64,000 nt of DNA. Source: Somniosus microcephalus (lineage: Eukaryota). The position numbers were made by a program, and so were the translations under genes. Positions 9,697 to 64,000 of this stretch are shown here, in pieces; within the stretch, counting starts at the first letter, position 1, and every line of letters starts with the position of its first letter. The notes beneath the pieces are model-generated. The model did no database searches and had not been told where the DNA came from. It saw only the letters and a list, made by a program, of their open reading frames with translations. The stretch is taken from contig CM126205.1 of assembly GCA_052327205.1 (NCBI GenBank), positions 280,984,001 through 281,048,000 of the forward strand. Reading direction: 5' to 3'.

Positions 9697-12600
9697 TGAT
9701 ATGCCTATCAATTAGTCCAATAAAAGGCGACGAGTTAAGAACGTAACTGAAGGTTTTTATTGGCTAAATAACAGAGCCCACCCTCGTGGGTGATCCGATC
9801 CAACAGGGAGGAATACTAGCCAGTCAGCTACCTTTATACCTGGGCAGGTAATGGGCGGAGTCGGAGGTGGTCAGCCCAGGTATAACAGTGCGACAAGAGG
9901 CGACCTCGTGTAGTGATGTGACAGTGAGAACAGTGAGAACAATATACAGTGATAACTATAACAGTGGTTTACCACATTCACCCCTTGTTTAGATTAGAGT
10001 CCGGCGGGGTGAAGTGTATTACCAGCTCTGGTATGTCAGTCTGTTCAGAGGCTTCGTTAGCCTCTCCGATCGTCGCAGCGGCGGTGTTACATTATCCGGT
10101 GTTAAAGCTGGTGTCTGCGTAGTCGGCAAAGGCTCGTGGGGTTCCGGCATGCCGTCTACCTCGGCTGGACTCGGGGGGTTGGGAGGGGGGGGTGAGGGTG
10201 CGAGGTCTCGTAAGGAGACAGTGTCCTCCCGTCCGTCTGGGTAAGCCACATAGGCGTACTGGGGGTTGGCGTGCAGGAGGTTCACCTTCTCGACCAGGGG
10301 GTCCGTTTTATGGGCCCTCACGTGCTTTCGCAGCAAGACGGGTCCCGGAGAGGTCAGCCAGGTTGGTAGGGTGGTTCCCGTAGTCGACTTCCTGGGGAAG
10401 ACAAACATTCGAGCATGGGGGGTGGTGTTAATGGCAGTGCAAAGTAGTGACCGGATGGAGTGCAGCGCAATCGGGAGGACCTCTTGCCAGCGGGAGGTTG
10501 GGAGGCCCTTAGACTTTAAGGCTAAGAGGGTGGCCTTCCATACCGTCGCGTTCTCTCTTTCCACCTGGCCGTTCCCTCGGGGGTTGTAGCTGGTGGTCCT
10601 GCTTGCTGCAATACCCCTCTCCAATAGGAACTGACGGAGTTCCTCGCTCATGAAGGAGGCGCCCCGGTCACTATGTATATAGTTCGGGAACCCGAACAAG
10701 GCGAAGAGTTTGTTCAGGCATTTAATGACCGTGTTACTGGTCATGTCTGGGCAGGGGAAGGCAAAGGGGAAACGGGAGTACTCATCAACGATGTTGAGGA
10801 AGTACACATTACGGTCGGATGACGGTAGGGGCCCCTTGAAGTCGATGCTCAGACGCTCGAAGGGGCGGGTGGCCTCGATCAGGCTTGCTCTGTCCGGCTT
10901 ATAGAAGTGCGGTTTGCACTCAGCACAGATCTGGCAGTTCCTGGTCATGGTCCTGACCTCCTCGATGGAGTATGGCAGGTTGCGGGCCTTAATGAAATGG
11001 TAGAGTCTGGTGACTCCGGGGTGGCAGAGGTCATTGTGGAGGGTCTGAAGTCTATCACTTTGCGCGCTGGCGCATGTAATGCGTGAAAGAGCATCAGGGG
11101 GGTCGTTCAGTTTACCGGGCCGGTACAAGATCTCATAATCATAGGTGGAAAGCTCGATTCTCCACCTCAAGATTTTGTCGTTCTTGATCTTGCCCCTCAG
11201 CTTGTTATTAAACATGAAGGCAACCGAGCGTTGGTCGGTGAGGAGGGTAAATCGTTTGCCTGCCAAGTAGTGCCTCCAGCGCCGTACTGCCTCCACAATT
11301 GCCTGGGCTTCCTTCTCGACCGACGAGTGTCGGGTCTCGGGGCCCTGTAGGGTCCTTGAGAAGAAGGCTACCGGCCTACCCTCCTGGTTAAGGGTAGCGG
11401 CTAGGGCGAAGTCGGATGCATCGCTCTCCACTTGGAAGGGGATTGACTCATCCACTGCGTGCATTGTGGCCTTGGCTATGTCTCCCTTAATGAGGGAGAA
11501 GGCCGCGCACGCCTCTTCCGTGAGGGGGAAGGATGTGGTTTTCAGGAGGGGTCTGGCTTTGTCCGCATAATTGGGTACCCATTGGGCATAGTAGGCGAAA
11601 AGCCCCAGGGTTCTCCTAAGTGCTTTTGGACAGTGGGGGAGGGGTAGCTCCATGAGGGGGCGCATTCTTTCGGGGTCGGGGCCGATGACTCCGTTCTCTA
11701 CTACACAGCCAAGGATGGCAAGGCGCGCTGTGTTAAACACGCATTTCTCCTTATTGTAGGTGAGGTTCAGCCGTTGGGCCGTACGGAGGAATTTCTCCAG
11801 ATTCATGTCATGGTCCTGCCGGTTGCGGCCGCAGATGGTGACGTTATCGAGATAGGGGAAAGTGGCCTGTAGTCCGTTCTGGTCAACCATCCGGTCCATC
11901 TCGCGTTGGAAAACCGAGACCCCGTTGGTGACACCAAAGGGGACCCTAAGGAATTGGTAGAGGCGGCCATTCGCCTCGAAGGCGGTGTACTGGCTGTCCT
12001 CCGGGCTGATGGGGAGTTGGTGGTAGGCCGACTTGAGGTCGATGGTCGAGAATACGCGGTATTGTGCAATCTCATTGACCATGTCCGATATGCGGGGGAG
12101 GGGGTATGCGTCCAGCTGGGTGTATCTGTTTATGGTCTGGCTGTAGACGATAACCAGGCGATTTTTGTCGCCGGTCTTGACTACCACCACCTGGGCACGC
12201 CAGGGGCTGCTGCTCCCCTCAATAATGCCCTCTTTCAGGAGTCGCTGCACCTCAGAGCTAATGAAGGCTCTGTCCCCAGCGCTGTACCGCCTGCTCTTAG
12301 TAGCGACAGGTTTGCAGTCGGGGGTGAGGTTAGCGAACAGGGAAGGTGGCGGTACCTTGAGGGTGGATAGGCTGCAGGTGTTACGCGGTGGGCGGTTTAA
12401 CTTTCGCTGGTTGTCGACTGTGAGTGGGGGGAGGGGTCCACCGTATGCTAGGGTATCAATTAGTCCAATAAAAGGCGACGAGTTAAGAACGTAACTGAAG
12501 GTTTTTATTGGCTAAATAACAGAGCCCACCCTCGTGGGTGATCCGATCCAACAGGGAGGAATACTAGCCAGTCAGCTACCTTTATACCTGGGCAGGTAAT

Positions 12601-12724
12601 GGGCGGAGTCGGAGGTGGTCAGCCCAGGTATAACAGTGCGACAAGAGGCGACCTCGTGTAGTGATGTGACAGTGAGAACAGTGAGAACAATATACAGTGA
12701 TAACTATAACAGTGGTTTACCACA
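9697..12724 (-). mobile_element. Gypsy LTR retrotransposon, gag-protease deleted (same family as 41744-46427)
   Basis: TG...CA ends; TSD TCCCC (9692-9696, 12725-12729); 3' LTR 9697-9976; 5' LTR remnant 12454-12724; PPT at 9977-9989. Confidence 0.93.
10019..12453 (-). pseudogene. Gypsy pol remnant (RT-RNase H-integrase), open but lacking gag and protease
   Basis: 743-aa ORF with FSTIDLKSAYHQ, YLDN, ESDAS, HHCC zinc finger and DDE; fused to the LTR at approx. 12454. Confidence 0.88.
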
Positions 12725-14070
12725 TCCCCCACGATGACGGCATCACTGCGACAGCCTCAGTACTCAACACCAACAACAGCCAATCTCCAGACGCCATCCT
12801 ACAACTCATCCACTTCATCCTTGACCACAATGTCTTCACCTTCGACAACCAGTTCTTTACCCAAACACACGGAACAGCCATGGGGACCAAATTCGCTCCC
12901 CAATATGCCAACATCTTCATGTACAACTTCGAGCAAGACTTCTTCTCTGCACAGGACCTCCAACCAACGCTATACACCAGATACATCGACGACATTTTCT
13001 TCCTATGGACCCACGGCGAAGAATCACTGAAAAGACTACACGATGACATCAACAAGTTCCATCCCACCATCAAACTCACCATGGACTACTCCTCAGAATC
13101 GGTTTCATTCTTGGACACACGAATCTCCATCAAAGACGGACACCTCAGCACTTCACTCTACCGCAAGCCCACGGACAACCTCACGATGCTCCACTTCTCC
13201 AGCTTCCACCCTAACCACATTAAAGAAGGCATCCCCTATGGACAAGCCCTGCGAATACATAGGATCTGCTCAGATGAGGATTAAGGCAATGGACACCTAC
13301 AGACGCTGAAAGACGCCCTCGTAAGAACGGGATATGACGCTCGACTCGTCGATCGACAGTTCCGACGGGCCACAGCGAAAAATCGCATAGACCTCCTCAG
13401 AAGACAAACACGGGACACAACCAACAGAGTACCCTTCGTCGTCCAGTACTTCCCCGGAGCGGAGAAACTACGCCATGTTCTGCGCAGCCTTCAACATGTC
13501 ATCGACAACGACGAACACCTCGCTAAGGCCATCCCCATGCCTCCACTACTCGCCTTCAAACAGCCGCCTAACCTGAAACAGACCATCGTTTGCAGCAAAT
13601 TACCCAGCTTTCAGGAGAACAGCGACCACGTCACCACACAACCCTGCCACGGCAACCTCTGCAAGACATGCCAGATCATCAACACAGATACCATCATCAC
13701 ACGTGAGGACACCACCCACCAGGTACATGGTACATACTCATGTGACTCGGCCAACGTTGTCTACCTCATACGTTGCAGAAAAGGGTGCCCCGGAGCATGG
13801 TACATTGGCGAGACAATGCAGACACTGCGACAACGGATGAACGGACGCCGCACAACAATCGCCAAGCAGGAGTGTTCCCTCCAAGTCGGGGAACACTTCA
13901 GCAGTCAAGGACATTCAGCCTCCGATCTTCGGGTAAGCATTCTCCAAGGCGGCCTTCGAGACACACGACAACGCAAAATCGTCGAGCAGAAACTGATAGC
14001 CAAGTTCTGCACTCATGAGGACGGCCTCAACCGGGATCTTGGGTTCATGTCACGCTACATGTACCCCCAC

Positions 14071-39617: not shown

Positions 39618-41228
39618 AACATACAAGATAGGAGCAGAAGTAGGCCATTCGGCCCTTCGAGCCTGCTCCGCCATTCAATGAGATCATGGCTGATCATTCA
39701 AATTCAGTACCCTGTCCCTGCCTTCTCTCCATATCCCTTGATCCCTTTAGCCTTAAGAAATATATCCAACTCTTTCTTGAATACATTTAATGAACTGGCC
39801 TCCACCGCCCTCTGTGGCAGAGAATTCCACAGGTTCACCACTCTCTGGGTGAAGAAATTCCTCCTCATTTCAGTCCTAAATGTCCTACCCCTTATCCTTA
39901 GACTATGACCCCTGGTTCTGGACTCCCTGACCATCGGGAACATCCTTCCAGCATCTAGTCTGTCCAGGCCTGACAGAATTTTATAGGTTTCGATGAGATC
40001 CCCTCTCAATCTTCTAAACTCCAGTGAGTATAAGCCCAATCGACACAATCTCTCCTCATACGTCATTCCTGCCATCCCAGGTATCAGCCTGGTGAATCTT
40101 TGCTGCACTCCTTCCATGGCAAGAACGTCCTTCCTCAGGTAAGGCGACCAAAACTGCACACAATACTCAAGGTGCGGTCTCACCAAGGCCCTGTACAACT
40201 GTAGCAAGACATCCTTGTTCCTGTACTCGAACCCTCTTGCTACGAAGGCCAACATACCATTTGCATTCTTAACCGCCTGCTGCACCTGCATGCTTACCTT
40301 CAGCGACTGGTGCACAAGAACACCCAGGTCTCTTTGCACTTCCCCTTCTCCCAATCTATTGCCATTCAAATAATAATGTGCCTTCCTGTTTTTGCCACCA
40401 AAGTGGATAACCTCATATTTATCCACATTATAGTGCATTTGCCATGTTTCTGCCCAATCACCTAACCTGTCCAAATCGTACTGGAGTTTCATGACACCCT
40501 CCTCGCAGCATACCCTCCCACCCAGCTTTGTGTCGTCTGCAAATTTGGAGATATTACATCCAGTTCCCTCGTCCAGATCATTAATATATATTGTGAACAG
40601 CTGGGGTCCTAGGACCAATCCTTGCGGTACCCCACTAGTCACTGCCTGCTACTTGGAAAACGACCCGTTTATTCCAACTCTTTGCTTTCTGTCCGCCAAC
40701 CAGTTCTCTATCCAAGTCAATACCTTGCCCCCAATCCCATGTGCCTTAATTTTGCACGCTAATCTCTTATGCGGGATCTTATCGAAAGCCTTCTGAAAGT
40801 CCAAATACACCACACCCACTGGTTCTCCCTTATCTATTTTACCAGTTACATCCTCAAAAAATTCCAGTAGATTAGTCAAGCATGATTTACCTTTTGTAAA
40901 TCCATGTTGACTTTGTCCGATCCTGTCACTGCTTTCCAAGTGCTCTGCTATTACATCTTTTATAATGGACTCTAGCATTTTCCCCACTACCGATGTCAGG
41001 CTTACCGGTCTATAATTCCCCGCTTTTTCTCTGCCACCTTTTTTGAATAGTGGGGTAACATTAGCTACCTTCCAATCCATGGGTACTGTTCCAGAGTCTA
41101 TCGAGTTCTGGAAGATGACCAGCAATGCATCTACTATTTCTAGGGCCACTTCCTTAAGTACCCTGGGATGTAGATTATCAGGCCCTGGGGATTTATCGGC
41201 CTTCAGTCCCATCAATTTTCCTAACACC
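39618..41228 (-). mobile_element. CR1 LINE, 5'-truncated, inserted in the H3 subterminal region
   Basis: KSPGPDNLHPRVLKE...NYRPVSLTS...SKFADDTKL; one stop; same subfamily as 46800-48560. Confidence 0.92.
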
Positions 41229-41743: not shown

Positions 41744-44700
41744 TTATGCCTATCAATTCATCCAATGAAAAGCGACGAGTTAAGAAAGTAACTATAGGTT
41801 TTTATTGGCTAAATAACAGAGCCCACCCTCGTGGGTGATCGGATCCAACAAGGAGGAATACCAGCCAGTCGACCACCTTTATACCTGGGCAGGTAGGTGG
41901 AGCCATGGGCGGAGTCAGCAGTGGTCAACCCAGGTATAACAGCGTGACAAGAGGCGACCTCGTATAGTGATACAACAGTGTGAACAGTGATAACCATAGA
42001 GTAACGATATAACAGTGATAACTATAGTGTAACGATAGTGAACGACAAAAGTGGTTTACCACATTCACCCCTTGTTTAGATTTGAGTCCGGCGGGGTGAT
42101 GTGTACTACCAGTTCTGGTATGTCAGTCTGTCCGGAGGCCTCGTAAGCCTTTCCGATCGTCGCAGCGGCGGTGTTGCATTCTCCGGTGGTGATGCTGGTG
42201 TCTGCGTGGTCGGCGAGGGCTCGTGGGGTTCCGGCATGCCGTCTACCTGAGCTGGAATCGGGGGGGGGGGGGGTGGGGGGGGTGAAGGTGGTGTCTCCGG
42301 AATGCTCGAGGGTGCGAGGTCTCGCAAGGAGACTGTGTCCTCCCGCCCGTCTGGGTATGCCACATAGGCGTACTGAGGGTTGGCGTGCAGGAGGTTCACC
42401 CTCTCGACCAGGGGGTCCGTTTTATGGGCCCTCACGTGCTTTCGCAGCAGGACGGACCCCGGAGAGGTCAGCCAGGTTGGTAGTGTGGTTCCCGTAGTCG
42501 ACTTCCTGGGGAAAACAAACATTCGTTCATGGGGGGTGGCGTTAATGGCAGTGCAGAGTAGTGACCGGATGGAATGCAGCGCTGCCGGGAGGACTTCCTG
42601 CCAGCGGGAGGTTGGGAGGCCCTTAGACTTTAAGGCTAAGAGGACGGCCTTCCATACAGTCGCGTTCTCTCTTTCCACCTGGCCGTTCCCTCGAGGGTTG
42701 TAGCTGGTGGTCCTGCTTGCAGCAATACCTCTTGCTAGTAGGAACTGGCGGAGTTCCTCGCTCATGACGGAGGAGCCCCGGTCACTATGTATATAGTTTG
42801 GGAACCCGAACAAGGCGAAGAGGTCGTTCAGGCATTTAATGACCGTGGTACTGGTCATGTCTGGGCAGGGGAAGGCGAAGGGGAAGCGGGAGTACTCATC
42901 AACAATGTTGAGGAAGTACACATTACGGTCAGAGGACAGGAGGGGCCCCTTAAAATCGATGCTCAAGCGCTCGAAGGGGCGGGTGGCCTTGATCAGGCTT
43001 GCTCTGTCCGGCCTAAAGAAATGCGGTTTGCACTCGGCACAGGTCTGGCAGTTCCTGGTCATGGTCCTGACCTCCTCGATGGAGTAGGGCAGGTTGCGGG
43101 CCTGAATGAAGTGGTAAAGTCTGGTGACTCCGGGGTGGCAGAGGTCGTTGTGGAGGGTCTGAAGTCTATCAATTTGCGCGTTGGCGCATGTAATTCGTGA
43201 TAGAGCATCAGGGGGTTCGTTCAGCTTACCTGGCCGGTACAAGATATCATAATCATAGGTGGAGAGTTCGATTCTCCACCTCAAGATCTTGTCGTTCTTG
43301 ATTTTACCCCTCAGCTTGTTATTAAACATAAAAGCGACCGAACGCTGGTCGGTGAGGAGGGTAAATCGTTTGCCTGCCAGGTAGTGCCTCCAGCATCGTA
43401 CAGCCTCCACAATCGCCTGGGCCTCCTTCTCGACCGACGAGTGTCGGATCTCAGGGCCCTGTAGGGTCCTTGAGAAGAAGGCCACCGGTCTCCCCTCCTG
43501 GTTAAGGGTAGCGGCTAGGGCGAAGTCGGATGCATCGCTCTCCACTTGGAAGGGGATGGACTCATCCACCGCGTGCATTGTGGCCTTAGCAATGTCTCCC
43601 TTAATGAGGGAGAAGGCAGCGCATGCTTCCTCCGTAAGGGGGAAGGATGTGGACTTCATGAGGGGTCTGGCTTTGTCCGCATAATTGGGCACCCATTGGG
43701 CATAGTAGGCGAAGAGCCCCAGGGTTCTCTTCAGCGCCTTTGGGCAGTGGGGGAGGGGTAACTCCATGAGGGGGCGCATTCTTTCGGGGTCGGGGCCGAT
43801 GAGTCCGTCCTCTACTACGCAGCCGAGGATGGCAAGGCGTGAGGTGTTAAACACACATTTCTCCTTATTGTAGGTGAGGTTCAGCCGTTGGGCCGTACGG
43901 AGGAATCTCTCTAGATTAACATCATGGTCCTGCCGGTCGCGGCCGCAGATGGTGACGTTATCTAGATAGGGGAACGTGGCGTGCAGCCCATTCTGGTCAA
44001 CCATCCGGTCCATCTCCCTTTGGAAGACCGAAACCCCGTTGGTGACGCCGAAGGGAACCCTAAGGAAGTGGTAGAGGCGGCCATTCGCCTCGAAGGCGGT
44101 ATACTGGCGGTCCTCAGGGCGGATAGGGAGTTGGTGGTAGGCCGACTTAAGGTCGATGGTAGAGAATACTCGGTATTGTGCAATCTGATTGACCATATCA
44201 GATATGCGGGGAAGGGGGTATGCGTCCAGCTGGGTGTACCGGTTTATGGTCTGGCTGTAGTCGATGACCAGGCGGTTTTTATTGCCGGTCTTAACGACCA
44301 CGACCTGGGCACGCCAGGGGCTGCTCTTCCCCTCAATGATGCCCTCCTTCAGGAGACGCTGCACCTCAGAGCTAATGAAGGCTCTGTCCCCGGCGCTGTA
44401 CCGCCTGCTCTTGGTAGCGACGGGTTTGCAGTCGGGGGTGAGGTTAGCGAACAGGGAAGGTCGCGGGACCTTGAGGGTGGATAGGCCGCAGGTGTTACGC
44501 GGTGGGCGGTTTAAAGGCTGCTGGTTGTCGACTGTGAGTGGGGGGAGGGGTCCGCCGTATGCTAGAGTGACGCTTTGGAGGTGGGATTGGAAGTCCAGCC
44601 CTAGTAGGACGGCAGCGCAGAGCTGGGGGAGGACGAGGAGTTTAAAATTTTTATACTCCGTGCCCTTAACCGACAGGGTCACGACACAGTAGCCGCTGAT

Positions 44701-46427
44701 GTCTGTGGCGTGGGACCTCGATGCCATCGAGATCCGGTTGCGCGTTGGCCGGACAGTGAGGGAGGTGTGGCTCACCGTGTCTGGGTGGATGAAACTCTCC
44801 GTGCTTCCGCTGTCGAACAGGCAGGTCGTGGCGCGGCCGTTTACTTTGATGTCCATCATGGACTTGGACAGGTGGTGCGGGCGGGCTTGGTCCAGTGTGA
44901 CGGAGGCTAGTGTGTGGCTCAGCGAGCTGCTGTAGTCTGCGGGTGAGGCGGTGGTCGAGTCCGGAGGCGAAGTGGCGGTCGAGCGTGGAGGGTGAAATGG
45001 CAGCGCCCACGAGGTTGGACAAAATGGCGGAGAAGATGGCTGCCCCCACAACTCACATGAGGCACTGCTGGTGTCGGTTGCCTGGATCAAAGATGGCCGC
45101 CCCCATGACTCACACGTGGGGATACTGGCATCTGTGGCCTTGATGGAAGATGGCCGCCCCCACAACTCGCATGAGGCACTGCTGGCCTCTTTTGATCTCT
45201 GTTGGCCTCTGCAGGCCTTAGCAAAGTGGCCTTTCTTCAGGCAGCTTGAGCACGTCGCGTTTCTCGCTGGGCAGCGCGCCCTAGTATGTTTCGCCTGGCC
45301 GCAGAAGAAGCAGCCAGCGGCCCGATCGCGGGGGTCCGAAGTCGCAGCCGGTACCGGGGGTGGCGGTCCCGATCGGGTCCGGGATGCCGACGCAGAGGTA
45401 GGTCCCAGGGGCGGCGCTGCGAGGGGTATCGCAGTCGGGGTCGGTCCCGAGTCCCAGGGTCGCAAATTACTGTACCTGGAGTACGCCTCGAGGTCCCGAT
45501 GGGCCACTTCTAGGGAGCGAGCGAGGGCTGCAGCTGTGTTCAGGTCAAGGTCCTTTGCTTCAAGAGGTCTTTGCCGTGTGTAGTCGGACCGCAGGCCTTT
45601 CACGAAGGCATCGCGGACATTATCTTCAGTATTTTCTGCCGCTGATACCGCTTTAAAGTCACAGTCCCTGCCGAGTGCTTGTAGCGCCCGTAAAAATTCA
45701 TCTACCGACTCTCCTGGCTGTTGCGGGCGGGATCTTAGGAGGTGTCTGGCAAACATGGAGTTTACCGGGCTCCGGTACTGTTGTTTCAGCAGGTTGATGG
45801 CGGCTTCGTATGTTTTAAGGTCCCGGATGAGTGCGAATACTTTAGGGCTCACTTGGGCGGTCAGAACCCTTAGCATGGATTTCTGAGGCACGCCGGATTC
45901 TCCCAGGTAGGATTCGAAACAGCTCAGCCAGTGTTCGAAGTCGAGGGCTGAGTTTGCTGCCTGTGGGTTTAGATCCAGGTACGGTGGTCGGAGGGCTCGC
46001 AGCCAGGCTGGCTGCTGTGGCTGTTGTAGCTGGGCGTCTGGCTGGTCGCTTGGCTGGTCGTTTGACTGCTCAAGTGTCGACATTTTAAAATTTAGCCAAT
46101 AAAATTGATATACCTATCAATTCATCCAATGAGAAGCGACGAGTTAAGAAAGTAACTATAGGTTTTTATTGGCTAAATAACAGAGCCCACCCTCGTGGGT
46201 GATCGGATCCAACAAGGAGGAATACCAGCCAGTCGACCACCTTTATACCTGGGCAGGTAGGTGGAGCCATGGGCGGAGTCAGCAGTGGTCAGCCCAGGTA
46301 TAACAGCGTGACAAGAGGCGACCTCGTATAGTGATACAACAGTGTGAACAGTGATAACCATAGAGTAACGATATAACAGTGATAACTATAGTGTAACGAT
46401 AGTGAACGACAAAAGTGGTTTACCACA
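41744..46427 (-). mobile_element. Full-length young Gypsy LTR retrotransposon
   Basis: 5' LTR 46106-46427 (TG..CA); 3' LTR approx. 41745-42063, about 3 substitutions between LTRs; PPT 42064-42076; left junction has lost the terminal bases and the TSD. Confidence 0.95.
42106..46083 (-). CDS. Single-frame Gag-Pol polyprotein, 1325 aa, intact
   Basis: Two zinc knuckles (CFFCGQAKHTRARC, CSSCLKKGHFAKAC), protease LFDSGS, RT (IDLKSAYHQ, YLDN), RNase H (ESDAS), integrase HHCC and DDE, in Gypsy order. Confidence 0.95.
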   Translation of the reverse strand: MSTLEQSNDQPSDQPDAQLQQPQQPAWLRALRPPYLDLNPQAANSALDFEHWLSCFESYLGESGVPQKSMLRVLTAQVSPKVFALIRDLKTYEAAINLLKQQYRSPVNSMFARHLLRSRPQQPGESVDEFLRALQALGRDCDFKAVSAAENTEDNVRDAFVKGLRSDYTRQRPLEAKDLDLNTAAALARSLEVAHRDLEAYSRYSNLRPWDSGPTPTAIPLAAPPLGPTSASASRTRSGPPPPVPAATSDPRDRAAGCFFCGQAKHTRARCPARNATCSSCLKKGHFAKACRGQQRSKEASSASCELWGRPSSIKATDASIPTCESWGRPSLIQATDTSSASCELWGQPSSPPFCPTSWALPFHPPRSTATSPPDSTTASPADYSSSLSHTLASVTLDQARPHHLSKSMMDIKVNGRATTCLFDSGSTESFIHPDTVSHTSLTVRPTRNRISMASRSHATDISGYCVVTLSVKGTEYKNFKLLVLPQLCAAVLLGLDFQSHLQSVTLAYGGPLPPLTVDNQQPLNRPPRNTCGLSTLKVPRPSLFANLTPDCKPVATKSRRYSAGDRAFISSEVQRLLKEGIIEGKSSPWRAQVVVVKTGNKNRLVIDYSQTINRYTQLDAYPLPRISDMVNQIAQYRVFSTIDLKSAYHQLPIRPEDRQYTAFEANGRLYHFLRVPFGVTNGVSVFQREMDRMVDQNGLHATFPYLDNVTICGRDRQDHDVNLERFLRTAQRLNLTYNKEKCVFNTSRLAILGCVVEDGLIGPDPERMRPLMELPLPHCPKALKRTLGLFAYYAQWVPNYADKARPLMKSTSFPLTEEACAAFSLIKGDIAKATMHAVDESIPFQVESDASDFALAATLNQEGRPVAFFSRTLQGPEIRHSSVEKEAQAIVEAVRCWRHYLAGKRFTLLTDQRSVAFMFNNKLRGKIKNDKILRWRIELSTYDYDILYRPGKLNEPPDALSRITCANAQIDRLQTLHNDLCHPGVTRLYHFIQARNLPYSIEEVRTMTRNCQTCAECKPHFFRPDRASLIKATRPFERLSIDFKGPLLSSDRNVYFLNIVDEYSRFPFAFPCPDMTSTTVIKCLNDLFALFGFPNYIHSDRGSSVMSEELRQFLLARGIAASRTTSYNPRGNGQVERENATVWKAVLLALKSKGLPTSRWQEVLPAALHSIRSLLCTAINATPHERMFVFPRKSTTGTTLPTWLTSPGSVLLRKHVRAHKTDPLVERVNLLHANPQYAYVAYPDGREDTVSLRDLAPSSIPETPPSPPPPPPPPIPAQVDGMPEPHEPSPTTQTPASPPENATPPLRRSERLTRPPDRLTYQNW

Positions 46428-46799: not shown

Positions 46800-48560
46800 T
46801 AAAAGTTTTTATAGATATATGAAGAGAAAAAGATTGGTGAAGTCAAGCGTAGGTCCCTTGCAGTCAGAATCAAGGGAATTTATAATGGGGAACAAAGAAA
46901 TGGCAGACCTATTAAATACATACTTTGGTTCTGTCTTCACAAAGGAGGACACAAATAACCTCCCAGAGGTGTCGGGAACATAGGGTCTAATGAGAGGGAG
47001 GAACTGAAAGAAATCAGTATTTGTAGGGAAATGGTGTTAGGGAAATTGACAGGATTGAAGGCCGATAAATCCCCAGGGCCTGATAATCTACATCCTAGGG
47101 TACTTAAGGAAGTGGCCCTAGAAATAGCAGATGCATTACTGGTCATCTTCCAAAATTCGATAGACTCTGGAACAGTTCCCATGGATTGGAGGGTAGCTAA
47201 TGTTACCCCACTATTCAAAAAAGGTGGTAGAGAGAAAACGGGGAATTATAGACCGGTAAGCTTGACATCGGTAGTGGGGAAAATGCTAGAGTCCATTATA
47301 AAAGATGTAATAGCAGAGCACTTGGAAAACAGTGACAGGATCGGACAAAGTCAACATGGATTTACAAAAGGTAAATCGTGCTTAACTAATCTACTGGAAT
47401 TTTTTGAGGATGTAACTGGTAGAATAGATAAGGGAGAACCAGTGGATGTGGTGTATTTGGACTTTCCAAAGGCTTTCGATAAGGTCCCGCATAAGAGATT
47501 AGCGTGTAAAGTTAAGGCACATGGGATTGGGGGCAAGGTACTGACTTGGATAGAGAATTGGTTGGCAGACATGAAGCAAAGAGTTGGAATAAACGGGTCT
47601 TTTTCTGAGTGGCAGGCAGTGACTAGTGGGTTACCGCAGGGATCGGTCCTAGGACCCCAGCTATTCACAATATATATAAATGATCTAGACGAGGGAACTA
47701 GATGTAATATCTCCAAGTTTGCAGAAGACACAGAGCTGGGTGGGCGTGTGTGCTGTGAGAAGGATGCCGAGAAACTCCAGTATGATTTGGACAGGTTGGG
47801 TGATTGGGCAGAAGCATGGCAGATGCAGTATAATGTGGATAAATGCGAGGTTATCCACTTTGGTGGCAAAAACAGGAAGGCAGATTATCTGAATGGAATA
47901 GATTGGGAGAAGGGGAAGTGCAATGAGACCTGGGTGTCCTTGTGCACCAGTCGCTGAAGGTAAGCATGCAGGTGCAGCAGGCGGTTAAGAAGGCAAATGG
48001 TATGTTGGCCTTCGTAGCGAGAGGGTTCGAGTACAGGATCAACGATGTCTTGCTGCAGTTGTACAGGGCCTTGGTGAGACCACATCTTGAGTATTGTGTG
48101 CAGTTTTGGTCGCCTTATCTGAGGAAGGATGTTCTTGCCATGGAGGGAGTGCAGCGAAGATTCACCAGACTGATACCTGGGATGGCAGGAATGACGTATG
48201 AGGAGAGATTGGGTCGATTGGGCTTATACTCGCTGGAGTTTAGAAGAATGAGAGGGGTCACAGTCTAAGGATAAGGGGTAAGCCATTTAGGAAAGAGATG
48301 AGGAGGAATTACTTCACCCAGAGAGTGGTGAACCTGTGGCATTCTCTACCACAGAAGGCAGTGGAGGCCAATTCATTAAATATTTTCAAGAAGGAGTTAG
48401 ATGTATTTCTTAAGGCTAAAGGGATCAAGGGATATGGGGAGAAGGCATGGACAGGGTACTGAATTTGGATGATCAGCCGTGATCTCATTGAATGGCGGAG
48501 CAGGCTCGAGGGGCCGAATGGCCTACTCCTGCTCCTATCTTCTATGTTTCTATGTTTCTA
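46800..48560 (+). mobile_element. CR1 LINE, 5'-truncated, with an internal deletion near 48257
   Basis: 308-aa and 108-aa ORF2 pieces; (TTCTATGT)n tail ending 48560. Confidence 0.92.
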
Positions 48561-57055: not shown

Positions 57056-57675
57056 ATAAGAACATAAGAAATAGGAGTAGGAGTAGGCCATACAGCCCCT
57101 CAAACCTCCTCCACCTTTCCATAAGTCCATGGCTGACCTTCGGCGTCAACTCCACCGTCCCACCCGTTCCCCATATCCCTTGATTCCTCTAAAGTCCAAA
57201 AATCTATCTATCTCAACCTTGAATATACTCAATGACTGAGCCTCCACAGCCCTCTGTGGTAGAGAATTCCAAAAATTTACAACCCTCTGAGTGAAGAATT
57301 TCCTCCTCATCTCAGTCTTAAATGGTCGACCCCCTATCCTGAGACTATGACCCCTACTTCTAGGCCCTCCAACCAGGGAAACAACCTCTCAGCGTCCACC
57401 CTCAAAATTCCCTTCAGAAACTTATATGTTTCAATGAGATCATCTCTCATTCTTCTAAACTCCAGAGAGTATAGGCCAATTCTACTCAATCTCTCATCAT
57501 AGGACAACCCTCTCATCGCAGGAATCAATCTAGTGATCCTTCGTTGCACCACCTCCAAGGCAAATATATCCTTCCTTAGATAAGGAGACCAAAACTATAC
57601 TCCAGGTTTGGTCTCACCAAAGCCCAATACAATTGTAGCAAGACTTCCTTACTCTTGCAATAATAGCCAACATGC
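57056..57675 (-). mobile_element. CR1 LINE 3' part
   Basis: EVVQRRITRLIP...RRMRDDLIETYK; (TTCTTATG)n tail at 57056. Confidence 0.88.
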
Positions 57676-58542
57676 ACTGGTATTAATCTTCCAGAATTCC
57701 CTAGATTCTAGAACAGTCCCCAAGGATTGGAAGGTAGCAAACATAACCCCGCTATTTAAGAAAGGAAGAAGAGAAAAATGGGGAACTATAGGTCAGTTAG
57801 CCTGATTTCAGTAGTAGGCAAAATGCTAGAATCTATTATTAGGGACGTGGTAACAGGGCACTTAGAAAATCATAACATGATTAGGCAGAGTCAACATACT
57901 TTTATGAAAGGGAAATCGTGTTTGACAATCTGTTAAGAGTTTTTTGAAGATGTAACTAGTAGGATGGATAAGGGGGAACCAGTGGATGTAGTGTATATGG
58001 ATTTTCAAAAAGTATTCGATAAGGTGCCACGCAAGAGGTTATTACACAAAATTAGGGCTCATGGTATTGGGGGTAATATATTCGCATGGATTGATGATTG
58101 GTTAATAGACAGAAAACAGAGAGTAGGAATAAACAGGGCTTTTTCAGGTTGGCAGGCTGTAACTAGCGGGGTACCGCAAGGATCAGTGCTTGGGCCTCGG
58201 TTCTGGACATTTTACATGCAGATAGCACCCTCTGGTGGTAGCTATTGTATAGCAGTGATGTTCTGGACTGATGAGCCATTTTATATGCAGATAGCACCCT
58301 CTGGTGGTGGTTATCGTGTTAGCAGTTTGTATGAAGCAGAGGTCATTTGACCTTTCTACCTTTCTTCCTGTGAGAGGTCATTTGACCTCTCTACCTTTCT
58401 TCCTGTGTGACTCAGGAAGCAGAATCCCAGGAAGTAGAATTCCAGGAAGAACCTGACTTGAGTAATGGAGAATCTGCCATGAGGTGTTCCATTCACAATC
58501 CAATGTAATCTGATTTCATATGTTAGGCCAAGCGCAATATCT

Positions 58543-58767
58543 GTGAGTATCTTTGTTTGTTAGCATAATAGCAACGTTGTCAGAGTAGTATTTTGATAAC
58601 ACTATGTTTATAAAAGGTTAATATTTGATAGTTACAGAAGTTAGTCCAAATGTTAGTTAGTTATACAATTAATCTATTCTACTGTTGTAAATATGTTTAT
58701 ATCTTATGTAATATCGAATGTATAGTACTCAGTTTATGTACAAAACATACTTTGTCTTTGTTTACAG
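58543..58767 (+). other. Predicted 225-bp GT-AG intron inside the BEL LTR (second copy 63576-63800)
   Basis: Consensus donor GTGAGT, AT-rich body, pyrimidine tract ctttgtctttgtttacAG. Confidence 0.65.
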
Positions 58768-58887
58768 TTTCACAAATTTGTTCAAGTAAAGCTTCAAAAC
58801 AGCAAACGGCTTCACGAGGAATTACTTTGAATAAGTGTTTAACTTGCTGGATAACTAGATAGGAGCACATCTAGTGCGGCCAGTAAA

Positions 58888-58938
58888 GTGAAAAGATAAA
58901 GTGAAAAGATATCAGTGAAAAGATAAAGTGAAAAGATA
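58888..58938 (+). repeat. Four tandem copies of GTGAAAAGATA at the primer-binding-site position of the BEL element
   Basis: Copies start at 58888, 58901, 58915, 58928. Confidence 0.92.
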
Positions 58939-59022
58939 GCAATACGGCTAGCTGTGAAGAGCGGAGCAGGAGGAACCCAGTGTAAGCCTTAACCTCGTAG
59001 AGCACACCTACCTCACATCAAC

Positions 59023-62000
59023 ATGTCAGAAGATAATAACGAAAATGCTTTGCAGCGAGGAGAAGACCCTAAATGGGCAGACGAAACTGTAGAAGGTGAC
59101 AATCGGTCTATAAGCTCCGGTTACGTCAGATCGCAAGCTGGTTCACGGTCATCAGGTGGTTCTAGAGTAAGCGTGACCATCGCCAGAGCACGGGCTAAGC
59201 TAGTGGCAGCTCAAGCCAGAGCTGCGCATGCGAACAGTGAAATAGAGATAAAAGTAAGACAGGCCCGTCTCCAAGCTGAATTCCAAGCCGAACAGGCCCG
59301 ACTCCAAGCTGAATCACAAGCCGAACAGGCCCGACTCCAAGCCGAACAGCCCCGACTCCAAGCTGAATTCGAAGCCGAACAGGTCAGTCACCAAGTTGAA
59401 CGCCAGGCTGAACAGGCCCGTCACCAAGTTGAACGCCAGGCTGAACAGGCCCATCTCCAAGCCACATTAGACGCGCTGCAGCAACAAAAAGAGATAGATA
59501 CTGCATTAGCCGAGACACAAGTATTTGAGGCAATTTTGGAGGGAGCTGATCCCGAGACAGCTTACAAACCTTTAATTCCCATTTCGTGGCAGAGTCCACG
59601 ACAGCGTACCATAGATTACGTGAGCGACCATGCCGACATACAGTTTACAGGAGAAAGGGATGGAGGCCCACACATCTCTACAGACGCAAGCACTTCGTAT
59701 AACATGCCCCAAGTTGCCAACCAAGGTCAAAGTAGACAGCGTGCCTCAAGCCGCAGAGTCTCCCCTAGCAGAACGGAAGACACGGTGCAGAGGAATAGGA
59801 CGCTGAATAGAGAAAGTCAGAGGCAAATCCCCTCTCGGTTCCTTGAGACCCCCAACAGAGCCCCTAGCCAAGGCAACCCTGGCACAGGTCCCAGCACCTA
59901 CGACCTTGCCAAATACCTTGCACGCACCCAGCTGGTGACTTCGGGGTTAATTAAGTTTGATGACAGGCCGGAGAATTATCGGGCTTGGAAGTTCTGCTTC
60001 CACAATGCCATATCGAGCTTAGACCTGTCGGCAGGAGAAGAGCTCGGCCTCCTTATCAAATGGCTAGGCCTGCAGGATAAAAGCGGCCAATGTGGGACAG
60101 CTGCCAGAGGGGTTGAAGAAGGCTTGGGTGAGGCTGGAAGAAAGCTACGGCTCGCCCGAAGCCATTGAAAGGGCTCTCTTTGACAGGTTGGAGAACTTTC
60201 CGAGGTTGACGAGTAAGGAACCCCAGAAGCTCCGCGACCTTGGAGATCTGCTGTCGGAACTCGAAGCCGCAAAGCAGGACAGCTACCTACCCGGTCTATT
60301 GTACTTAGACACTTCCAGAGGAGTAAGTCCCATCATTGAGAAGCTTCCATTTAACCTGCAGGAGAAGTGGATAACGTTTGGATCAAAGTTCAAGCTAAAG
60401 CACAACGTGGCGTTCCCACCATTCTCTGCGTTCGTTAAATTCATCCGTAAAGAAGCCAAAGCCAGGAACGACCCCAGCTTCAACTTCTTCTCCTCCCACC
60501 CAGCACTTGCCAGAAGAGACAAGTTCGACAGACATGGAAGGACACCAATATCTGTCCACAAAATGCAAGTGTCCTCAACTGAGCACACAAAGATTCAGAA
60601 GAAAACTGAGGATATGAGCAAACAATGCCCTATCCACAACAAGCCTCATCCTTTAAAGAAGTGCAGAGGCTTCAGGGAGATGTCCCTGGAAGATCGGAAA
60701 CAATACCTCAAAGAGAACTCTATATGTTTCAAGTGCTGCTCTTCCACGAGCCATCTCGCCAAGAACTGCAAGGTAGATGCAAAATGCACTGAATGTGAAA
60801 GTGATCGGCACATTTCAGCACTCCACCCAGGCCCAGCTCCTTGGAAGTCAGAGTCGCCTCCTCCCGCCTCAGAGCACGGCGGGGAGAGTGAGGGAGCTGC
60901 TGGTCCGGAGATTACATCCAAGTGCACCGAGGTGTGTGGAGAAGGAGTGAGCGCAAGAGCATGCTCCAAGATACGCTTCGTTAATGTGTACCCTGCAGGA
61001 TGTCGCCAGGAATCTGAAAAGATGTATGCCATACTAGATGAATAAAGCAATCGTTCTCTAGCAAGATCCGAGTTCTTCAACATCTTCAAGGTCAAAGGAA
61101 GTCCGTCGCCTTACACGCTGAAGACGTGTGCTGGACTTTCAGAGACAGCCGGCAGGAGGGCCTGCGGTTACGTTGTTGAGTCAGCTGACGGGAAGATTAG
61201 TCTCCCCCTTCCTACACTCATCAAATGTAATCAAGTCCCTGACAACCGTTCTGAGATTCCCACTCCGAATGCAGCTCGTCATCACCGTCATCTGAGATGC
61301 ATTGCAGACGAGATCCCACCTCTTGATCCAGATGCAAGCATACTTCTGTTGTTGGGAAGAGACATCCTGAGGGTACATAAGATAAGGGAAGAGATCAACG
61401 GTCCACATGACGCCCCTTTCGCCCAAAGGCTAGACCTCGGCTGGGTCGTTGTTGGAGATGTGTGCCTCAAGGGCGCTCACAAGTCATCTCAGGTGAGCAC
61501 ACTCAGGACTTCCATCTTGGAGAATGGTCGTCCAAGCTACCTTACCCCATGCAGTAATCAGATCCAAGTGACAGAGAAGTTCAGTCATACGGCTCAGCCT
61601 CAGAAAACCCCAGCGCTGATCTCCGCAGACAGCACACAGATGATGCTCACTGGAGAGAACCCGGGTCAGTCAGTCTTCTGTCGCACTGCCAACGACCACA
61701 AACTTGCTCCATCGATCGACGACATGAGGTTCCTCCAGATTATGGACAATGAGGTCTCTCGTGACAGCTCTAACAGCTGGGTTGCACCCTTACCCTTCCG
61801 GAACCCCAGACAACGGCTGCCGAACAACAGGGGGTATGCCTATAATCGTCTTAACTCACTCCGTCGCACACTGGAGAAGAAGCCAGAGATGAAAGCGCAC
61901 TTCCTAGAATTTGTCAAGAAAATGCTTGTCAACGATCATGCAGAGATCGCTCCGCCACTCCAGGAAGGCCAAGAGTGTTGGTACCTCCCTTCCTTCGGAG

Positions 62001-63189
62001 TCTATCACCCCAAAAAGCCGGAACAGATCCGCGTGGTGTTTGACTCCAGTGCACCATATCAGGGAGTCTCTCTCAATGATGTACTCCTCACAGGGCCCGA
62101 TCTTAACAACAGCCTCTTGGGAGTGCTCATGAGATTCAGGAAAGAGCCCGTCGCCATCACTGCCGATATCCAGCACATGTTTCATTGCTTCGTGGTGAGA
62201 GAAGACCACAGAGACTTCCTTCGCTTCCTGTGGAATCGGGACAATGACCCCAATAGAGACATTGTGGACTACAGAATGCGTGTCCATGTCTTTGGGAATA
62301 GCCCATCCCCTGCTGTCGCCATATACGGACTAAGGAGGGCTGCCAAGGAAGACGACGACTTTGGCAGTGATGTGAGAGGGTTCATCGAACGAGAGTTCTA
62401 TGTCGACGACGCACTGAAGTCATTCCCGACCGAAGCAGAGGCCATCGGTACCCTCGGACGAGCCCAGGAACTACTTGCACTATCCAACCTCAGGCTGCAT
62501 AAGATAGCCTCTAACAGACCAGCAGTGATGGAGGCATTCCCCCCTGAAGATCGTGCTAAGGACGTCAAGGACCTAGACCTCTTCACTGATGACCTCCCCC
62601 TACAGCGTAGCCTAGGGGTGTCGTGGAACATAGCAACAGACACGTTCACGTTCCAAGTCTTAGACGTCAAGAAACCCTTCACACGTAGAGGAGTGCTCTC
62701 TACAGTCAACAGCCTATACGACCCTCTCGGCTTCTTAGCCCCTGTCACAATACAAGGCAGGCTGCTCCTCAGGGAACTCTCCACACGCGCTGAAGAGTGG
62801 GATTCACCTCTCCCTGAAGAGATGGAAGCAGAGTGGGACAGATGGAGAGACTCACTCCAAGACTTACAGGAGATCCGAATACCTCACTGCTATTCATCTT
62901 TCTCTCCCTTAAATACCCAATTCAAAGAGCTTTGTGTCTTTGCAGACGCATCCGCTAAGGCCATTGCAAGTGTGGCTTATCTGAAGGTCACCACTCAAGA
63001 TGGACAAAGCAAAATTGGCTTCGTCTTTGATAGAGGCAAGTTGGCGCCCCAGCCAGACCTCACCATACCCAAATTGGAACTGCGCGTAGCAGAACGCAGG
63101 CTACGGAAGCTGCATCCTATCGTCGACACCAACGGACTGTCTCTGAGATGGTTCTTCTTTTGTCGCCAGAGGACTCTAGTGACAAGTAG
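59023..63189 (+). pseudogene. BEL gag-pol, disrupted
   Basis: KFDDRPENY; triple Cys-His array (CPIH..H....C, CFKC....H....C, CTEC...H...LH); protease YAILDE*S; WYLPSFGVYHPKKP..IRVVFDSSA; FYVDD; VFADAS; TIPKLEL; frameshift near 60070; TAA at 61043; integrase reduced to fragments. Confidence 0.9.
59260..59461 (+). repeat. Approx. 33-bp coding repeat (EQARLQAE...) in BEL gag
   Basis: About six imperfect units gccgaacaggcccgactccaagctgaa... Confidence 0.85.
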
Positions 63190-64000
63190 AGTTCGGACTA
63201 TGTGGAGTCGTTAACGACCCCAGACGGGGAGTGTTCTGGACATTTTACATGCAGATAGCACCCTCTGGTGGTAGCTATTGTATAGCAGTGATGTTCTGGA
63301 CTGATGAACCATTTTATATGCAGATAGCACCCTCTGGTGGTGGTTATCGTGTTAACAGTTTGTATGAAGCAGAAGTCATTTGACCTTTCTACCTTTCTTC
63401 TTGTGAGAGGTCATTTGACCTCTCTACCTTTCTTCCTGTGTGACTCAGGAAGCAGAATCCCAGGAAGTAGAATTCCAGGAAGAACCTGACTTGAGTAATG
63501 GAGAATCTGCCATGAGGGGTTCCATTCACAATCCAATGTAATCTGATTTCATATGTTAGGCCAAGCGCAATATCTGTGAGTATCTTTGTTTGTTAGCATA
63601 ATAGCAACATTGTCAGAGTAGTATTTTGATAACACTATGTTTATAAAAGGTTAATATTTGATAGTTACAGAAGTTAGTCCAAATGTTAGTTAGTTATACA
63701 ATTAATCTATTCTACTGTTGTAAATATGTTTATATCTTATGTAATATCGAATGTATAGTACTCAGTTTATGTACAAAACATACTTTGTCTTTGTTTACAG
63801 TTTCACAAATTTGTTCAAGTAAAGCTTCAAAACAGCAAACGGCTTCACGAGGAATTACTTTGAATAAGTGTTTAACTTGCTGGATAACTAGATAGGAGCA
63901 CATCTAGCGCGGCCAGTACAGCCTCAGCTATTTTCAATCTATATTAGCGACTTAGATGAAGGGACTGAATGTAACATATCCAAGTTTGCTGATGATACAA

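Follow-up and report, generated by a model that had tools for sequence, protein, structure and literature searches.

Introduction

Self-priming of reverse transcription is described for Tf1, in which the first 11 bases pair with the PBS (primer-binding site) and an RNase H cut between base 11 and base 12 makes the primer (PMC7175516). It has been given for the Tf1/sushi group as well as for Tcn1 and TAR (PMC6317226). In contrast, the ICTV profile of the Belpaoviridae describes a PBS of 18 nt that is complementary to tRNA-Arg or tRNA-Gly (PMC8742986). A search of the full-text literature (with Repbase, Dfam, GyDB and subscription journals outside its scope) found no report of self-priming in BEL/Pao elements, nor of any intron-split primer. 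The terms PBS and tRNA have no occurrences in PMC554778, PMC3118150 and PMC6238403, and the accessible parts of PMC4600332, PMC10886601 and PMC3601003 say nothing on BEL priming. Self-priming in fish BEL families may already be mentioned in Repbase; self-priming would then be less new, and the point about the intron would be unaffected.

Here we describe a BEL/Pao retrotransposon in a 64-kb window (the whole stretch of DNA that was analysed) whose PBS matches the splice junction of an intron within its own LTR. We consider it probable that a BEL/Pao clade self-primes minus-strand DNA in the manner of Tf1, and that the primer is split by a conserved spliceosomal intron in many of its families.

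Anatomy and Kinship of the Element

The element at 58199-63920 (Table 1) has the structural marks of BEL/Pao, namely 689-nt LTRs, a 3' LTR of the form TG...CA, a 5-bp duplication and a polypurine tract (PPT). Two of the nine differences between the LTRs affect their ends: the 5' copy starts with G and ends with AA, where the 3' copy has T and CA. Pol is of the Pao type (PF05380, E 7.8e-35), and the gag-pol of this copy is interrupted by a frame change near 60068-60168 and a stop at 61043-61045. PF05380, PF00665 and PF18701 are all present in full-length relatives (62-76% identity), and relatives of the element carry DUF5641 and an integrase. The named protein relatives (62-74% identity) belong mostly to fishes, plus amphibians and a sea star. 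The family is large in the 6.4-Gb genome, with 3900 first-look candidates, 40 of them scored. A scan of IMG/VR (query P0003) gave no match.

Table 1. Coordinates of the features of the element within the window.
Feature	Position (strand)	Remarks
Target-site duplication, 5 bp	left copy 58194..58198 (+), right copy 63921-63925	flanks the LTRs
5' LTR, 689 nt	58199..58887 (+)	9 differences from 3' LTR
Putative self-primer, exon-1 half	58537..58542 (+)	5-6 nt pair with PBS positions 7-12
LTR intron, GT-AG, 225 nt	58543..58767 (+)	junction reads 58542 to 58768; precise genomic loss
Putative self-primer, exon-2 half	58768..58773 (+)	C58773 opposite first base past the LTR
Predicted cut site	58773/58774 (+)	by analogy with Tf1
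Candidate poly(A) signal variant AGTAAA	58785..58790 (+)	11 nt past primer end; putative
PBS units, four in tandem (13, 14, 13 nt and distal unit)	58888..58938 (+)	without TGG-type tRNA PBS
Broken gag-pol	58993..63214 (+)	ends past the Pao Peptidase_A17 region; integrase match absent
PPT, purine-rich tract	63222..63231 (+)	precedes 3' LTR; read from sequence
3' LTR	63232..63920 (+)	intron retained at 63576-63800

Within the gag region, 33-nt tandem repeats (59226-59498) encode an A/E/Q-rich stretch. The element is inserted in a LINE-like repeat (57444-58198 and 63921-64000), presumably CR1, which is 75-78% like 40003-40155 and 47397-47677. The window also holds a gypsy-type element on the minus strand (41745-46427) with a 1335-aa frame containing protease, RT, RNase H and integrase, and a second, rearranged copy of that gypsy family, likewise on the minus strand (9700-12725), is 89% identical to it over 2.8 kb. 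The sequence after the 5' LTR of the former has a 15-nt contiguous LTR complement covering an AATAAA hexamer, which is a candidate for a second self-primer or for a poly(A)-occluding helix.

The PBS Matches a Splice Junction of Its Own LTR

An initial annotation of this DNA had placed the end of the 5' LTR at 58887, directly followed by a PBS that is not of the TGG type, and our analysis agrees. It had counted two PBS copies; there are four units, starting at 58888, 58901, 58915 and 58928, and each begins GTGAAAAGATA. The donor at 58543 and the acceptor at 58767 that it had proposed were recovered, with the match split at the GT and AG. Joined across this 225-nt intron, the exons are the reverse complement of the PBS over 11 nt (5+6) for units 1, 3 and 4 and over 12 nt for unit 2, as had been claimed for the first (11/11) and second (12/12) copies. 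The terminal C of the primer lies at offset 0, also as proposed. The unspliced LTR had been said to contain no contiguous match, and the longest contiguous complement to the PBS found in it is 6 nt. Retention of the intron by both LTRs (58543-58767 and 63576-63800) was likewise correctly described. A feature of Tf1/sushi self-priming, a PBS complementary to about 11 nt of the element's own LTR RNA, is present here after splicing, over 11-12 nt.

When all pairs of the 57 GT and 54 AG sites in the LTR were tried, the 58543/58767 pair gave the best match (11 nt, offset 0). At least 11 nt was reached by 1 of 300 random internal 25-mers in a loose search, and by 0 of 200 GT-starting 25-mers under a strict splice consensus. 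ARAGORN found 0 tRNA genes in the 64-kb window. Rfam models searched over 58150-59100 gave no match over the PBS and two sub-threshold miRNA matches elsewhere in that region.

The LTR Intron Is Spliced and Has Been Lost Precisely

The LTR intron is spliced at the 58543/58767 borders, as precise loss from genomic copies and junction reads show. The exact 20-nt junction motif occurs at 191 genomic sites and the donor-side motif at 1966, while controls gave 0; the intron is retained at about 91% of the family's LTR motif sites, and about 9% carry the primer sequence contiguously. Every one of the 30 copies collected by similarity has retained the intron, at a length of 218-225 nt. Among the first 100 junction sites listed, 51 have a same-strand partner less than 25 kb away, and 20 intronless 5' LTRs taken from such pairs have an unchanged PBS type. 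Many of the intronless LTR pairs lie about 3.8-4.1 kb apart, against 5.0 kb in the 58199-63920 copy, suggesting internally deleted non-autonomous subfamilies.

In a tree of the exon columns, intronless copies interleave with intron-bearing ones near L017, L023, L024 and L028, a pattern that speaks for precise loss of the intron on more than one occasion. The 29 intron-bearing rows of this tree (L026 was left out) were picked by their likeness to the window copy, so a single cluster of intronless copies cannot be called a clade.

Reads spanning the junction, for which the initial annotation had proposed a search, were found in RNA run X8: six reads from three starts skip from 58542 to 58768, in RNA from an organism that may not be the host and with intronless genomic copies as a possible source. 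These reads reach at least 32 nt on each side, and their first mate is always on the minus strand, which in most stranded libraries corresponds to sense RNA. Run X7 gave 0 junction reads. The contig runs X5 and X2 contained no junction, which does not amount to absence, as contigs drop rare variants. RNA reads also show that LTR transcripts are abundant and extend into the flanks. Because the junction reads may stem from intronless copies, the genomic losses are the stronger evidence of splicing.

A primer that depends on splicing, as initially proposed, holds for the intron-bearing copies and not in general. The intron is dispensable for the mechanism, since the primer sequence is contiguous at about 9% of the LTR sites of this family and in at least six related families among the metagenome loci; only in intron-bearing copies is the primer limited to spliced RNA.

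Covariation of the PBS and the Junction in Related Families

A metagenome scan for related loci was performed, and the best 80 of 218 were analysed; a 5' LTR end was identified in 50 of these and none in 30. The PBS for tRNA-Arg or tRNA-Gly that the ICTV profile leads one to expect was not seen, with a TGG-type site at 0 of the 50 identified LTR ends (best 80 of 218 loci). Within the same set of 50, 27 loci have a match of 10-17 nt that is split at a canonical donor and acceptor (in L092 with one G-U pair), and nine have a contiguous match of 10-15 nt. The remaining 14 comprise one locus (L072) that matches only with a 1-nt bulge, six with a match on the acceptor side only, six with too little LTR, and L094, in which no match between PBS and junction was found. 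Of the acceptor-side loci, L091 and L143 come without the donor region and L135 has one substitution, while L069, L128 and L140 include the upstream DNA, yet no matching canonical donor was found there. These last three loci, L072 with its bulge, the matchless L094 and the pair L106/L111, whose split match is only 10 nt long, count against self-priming. Free G-U pairing produces spurious longer matches at non-canonical donors, and G-U was allowed only for L092. For L111, the canonical donor with its 10-nt match was preferred to a weak donor that yields a split match of 16 nt.

Split matches are found in 16 families including that of the element described here, which share less than 90% and down to 44% identity in the RT region. 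The first 10 nt of the PBS take 11 different sequences among the 16, in which only the leading GT is invariant, and the other eight positions vary in step with the junction. The introns measure 90-727 nt, the acceptor always lies 6-9 nt ahead of the primer end, and in all but one of the 16 families (15 of 16) the helix sits at offset 0 relative to the LTR end. In a per-family null, which covered only families already found positive, 0 of 187-200 GT-starting control 25-mers reached the observed score in any of the 16. Across 15 families, the PBS matches its own junction over a mean of 11.5 nt versus 4.1 nt for foreign junctions (L092 scores low here owing to its G-U pair), and only 2 of 210 foreign pairs reached 11 nt, both between two related families. 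A one-pair compensatory change separates L084 from L117. The covariation of junction and PBS that had been put forward as a check is seen in 16 families and in the further locus L117. In L117, L119, L128 and L135, a second strong donor-like site (GAG/GTAAG) is present about 35-45 nt past the PBS start.

Some relatives do without the intron. A second BEL family of the same genome, at 41% RT identity, has a contiguous 10-nt match that starts 3 nt past the LTR. This family (L061-L066) is young, with LTR pairs 98.8-99.8% identical and frames of more than 2000 aa. In the tree built from RT, L114, a family with a contiguous match, falls with support 100 inside a split clade, and further branches also carry contiguous families; the tree is midpoint-rooted, so that gain versus loss of the intron has no set direction in it.

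Leader Geometry and Transcript Start

Primer end and LTR end are 78-200 nt apart in 21 of 22 representatives. In the same proportion (21/22) a poly(A)-type hexamer falls between the two, an arrangement that one would expect if the copied repeat began at the primer end. The predicted probability that primer and PBS pair is about 1.0 in spliced RNA versus 0.10-0.36 in unspliced RNA, for four assumed starts. In Tf1/sushi self-priming, a stem-loop in U5 (U5-IR) is said to help.

Among 40 5' LTRs, the PBS has one to four units. At position 12, 58 of the 74 non-distal units carry T, and 35 of the 38 distal units, as well as both single units, carry G. A T at this position pairs with A58537 and extends the match to 12 nt; no unit reaches 13 nt. 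The T fits copying of a 12-nt primer in plus-strand synthesis followed by faulty strand transfer, and a single inherited mutation retained for stronger pairing explains it too. The former reading implies a start merely 6 nt ahead of the donor, while the junction reads extend at least 32 nt. More generally, if transcription began at the first paired base, as in Tf1, exon 1 would be just 3-10 nt long, which is unusual and counts against self-priming.

Inspection by eye of the 60 nt ahead of the primer showed no conserved TATA box. A YAG, often behind a pyrimidine-rich tract, stands 8-16 nt ahead of the donor in L075, L084, L092, L100, L103, L104 and L109, and at 58524-58527 in the window; it could mark a transcription start or a micro-exon. 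The PBS match of L103 and L109 starts exactly after this upstream AG. In the scanned region of L084, L096 and L103 there is a single strict donor.

Proposed Mechanism and Alternative Explanations

By analogy with Tf1, we infer transcription start, cleavage and priming as follows. Transcription would start in the 5' LTR upstream of the donor, and splicing would remove the LTR intron, as it is seen to do. The junction is predicted to pair with the PBS over 10-17 nt, the terminal AC opposite the GT after the LTR, in keeping with the observed complementarity and covariation; as judged from the sequences, the geometry is that of a primer, with the helix ending at the first internal base. The RNA would be cut right after the AC, probably by the RNase H of the element, and the new 3' end extended. 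Strong-stop DNA would copy only about 114 nt, from the cut to the LTR end, and the upstream part of both new LTRs would come from the 3' LTR, mostly unspliced. As strong-stop DNA would start downstream of the junction, the spliced junction would not be inherited from the 5' end. Splicing favours cap-proximal donors, and the exon that the 3' donor closes is several kilobases long, so that the 3' copy would mostly escape splicing. Inheritance of the intron through the 3' LTR would fit 91% retention with occasional loss: a spliced 3' copy would give intronless progeny with a contiguous primer, and intronless LTRs are indeed present in the genome.

The junction RNA could instead prime in trans, supplied by a spliced 3' LTR, by solo-LTR transcripts or by the intronless minority, and the genomic RNA need not then be spliced. 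Unequal splicing of two identical LTRs would no longer be required, and both the intron kept at 91% of motif sites and the abundant LTR transcripts running into the flanks would suit such a supply. However, folding in cis is strongly favoured once the RNA is spliced, the spacing of primer and PBS in 21 of 22 representatives is what a fold-back would need, and Tf1, as described in PMC7175516, works in cis. We regard priming in trans as unlikely. It is quite improbable that the duplex is a structural RNA element controlling packaging, translation or poly(A) addition while a host RNA such as a tRNA half does the priming. We infer the role of the junction RNA as primer, and tRNA priming is what the ICTV profile gives for the family (PMC8742986), which leaves some room for this explanation; but in 15 of 16 families the helix stops precisely at the first base beyond the LTR, Rfam models searched over 58150-59100 give no match over the PBS, and a fixed host RNA would not follow a PBS that varies with the junction at eight of its first 10 positions.

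It is very unlikely that the end formed by polyadenylation cleavage of the same RNA in its 3' LTR serves as the primer, as in 21 of 22 representatives the poly(A) hexamer is found downstream of the primer end, and use of a spliced 3' LTR would erase the intron in every round, against a retention of 91%. Chance complementarity in A/T-rich sequence, which an A-rich PBS and T-rich acceptors might invite, hardly merits belief: it is refuted by covariation, and the nulls with random and GT-starting 25-mers, the cross-family control and the compensatory changes all speak against it.

Under Tf1-style self-priming, the intron could act as a functional gate through which two identical LTRs act differently: the cap-proximal 5' copy would be spliced and become the primer, and the unspliced 3' copy would be unable to pair and would escape RNase H. 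We hold this tentatively, at somewhat less than an even chance. If true, splicing would license reverse transcription, and the gate would explain why the position of the intron is kept across families down to 44% identity despite repeated loss. Alternatively, the intron may be a passenger retained for expression.

Significance and Comparison with Known Systems

If the proposed mechanism is true, a reverse-transcription primer is made by the spliceosome. This would conflict with the tRNA-primed ICTV description of BEL/Pao for a clade with protein relatives in fishes, amphibians and a sea star. A split primer could also account for LTR elements that have been scored as lacking a PBS, because searches for contiguous matches miss it. 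With 191 versus 1966 sites in one genome, the family provides a natural system for intron loss via reverse transcription, and it makes it possible to test whether identical sequences at either end of one RNA are spliced differently.

Among the closest likenesses is that to Tf1/sushi elements, including Tf1 and Tf2 of Schizosaccharomyces pombe, which are described as self-primed, with no tRNA PBS and with LTR RNA that is complementary to the PBS over about 11 nt (PMC7175516, PMC4600332). Those elements are Ty3/gypsy chromoviruses, whereas the Pol described here is of the Pao type, and an intron splits the putative primer in 16 BEL/Pao families. For Tf1, RNase H cleavage and a primer at the very 5' end of the RNA are described; for the BEL/Pao clade, cleavage is proposed by analogy, and a 5'-terminal primer is one possibility. 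The clade shares LTRs, a PPT and a gag-pol with Pao Peptidase_A17 with the Belpaoviridae of the ICTV, and differs in the tRNA PBS that the profile gives for them (PMC8742986). The plant elements Tcn1 (gypsy) and TAR (copia) are similar in that a self-primer was predicted from complementarity between LTR and PBS; they were found as contiguous blastn matches of at least 10 nt, a method that would miss a split primer (PMC6317226). In the fungal Helenus/copia elements, the PBS likewise fits the spliced form of the primer RNA, but that primer is reported to consist of halves of an intron-containing host tRNA (PMC10886601), and not of the element's own spliceosomal junction.
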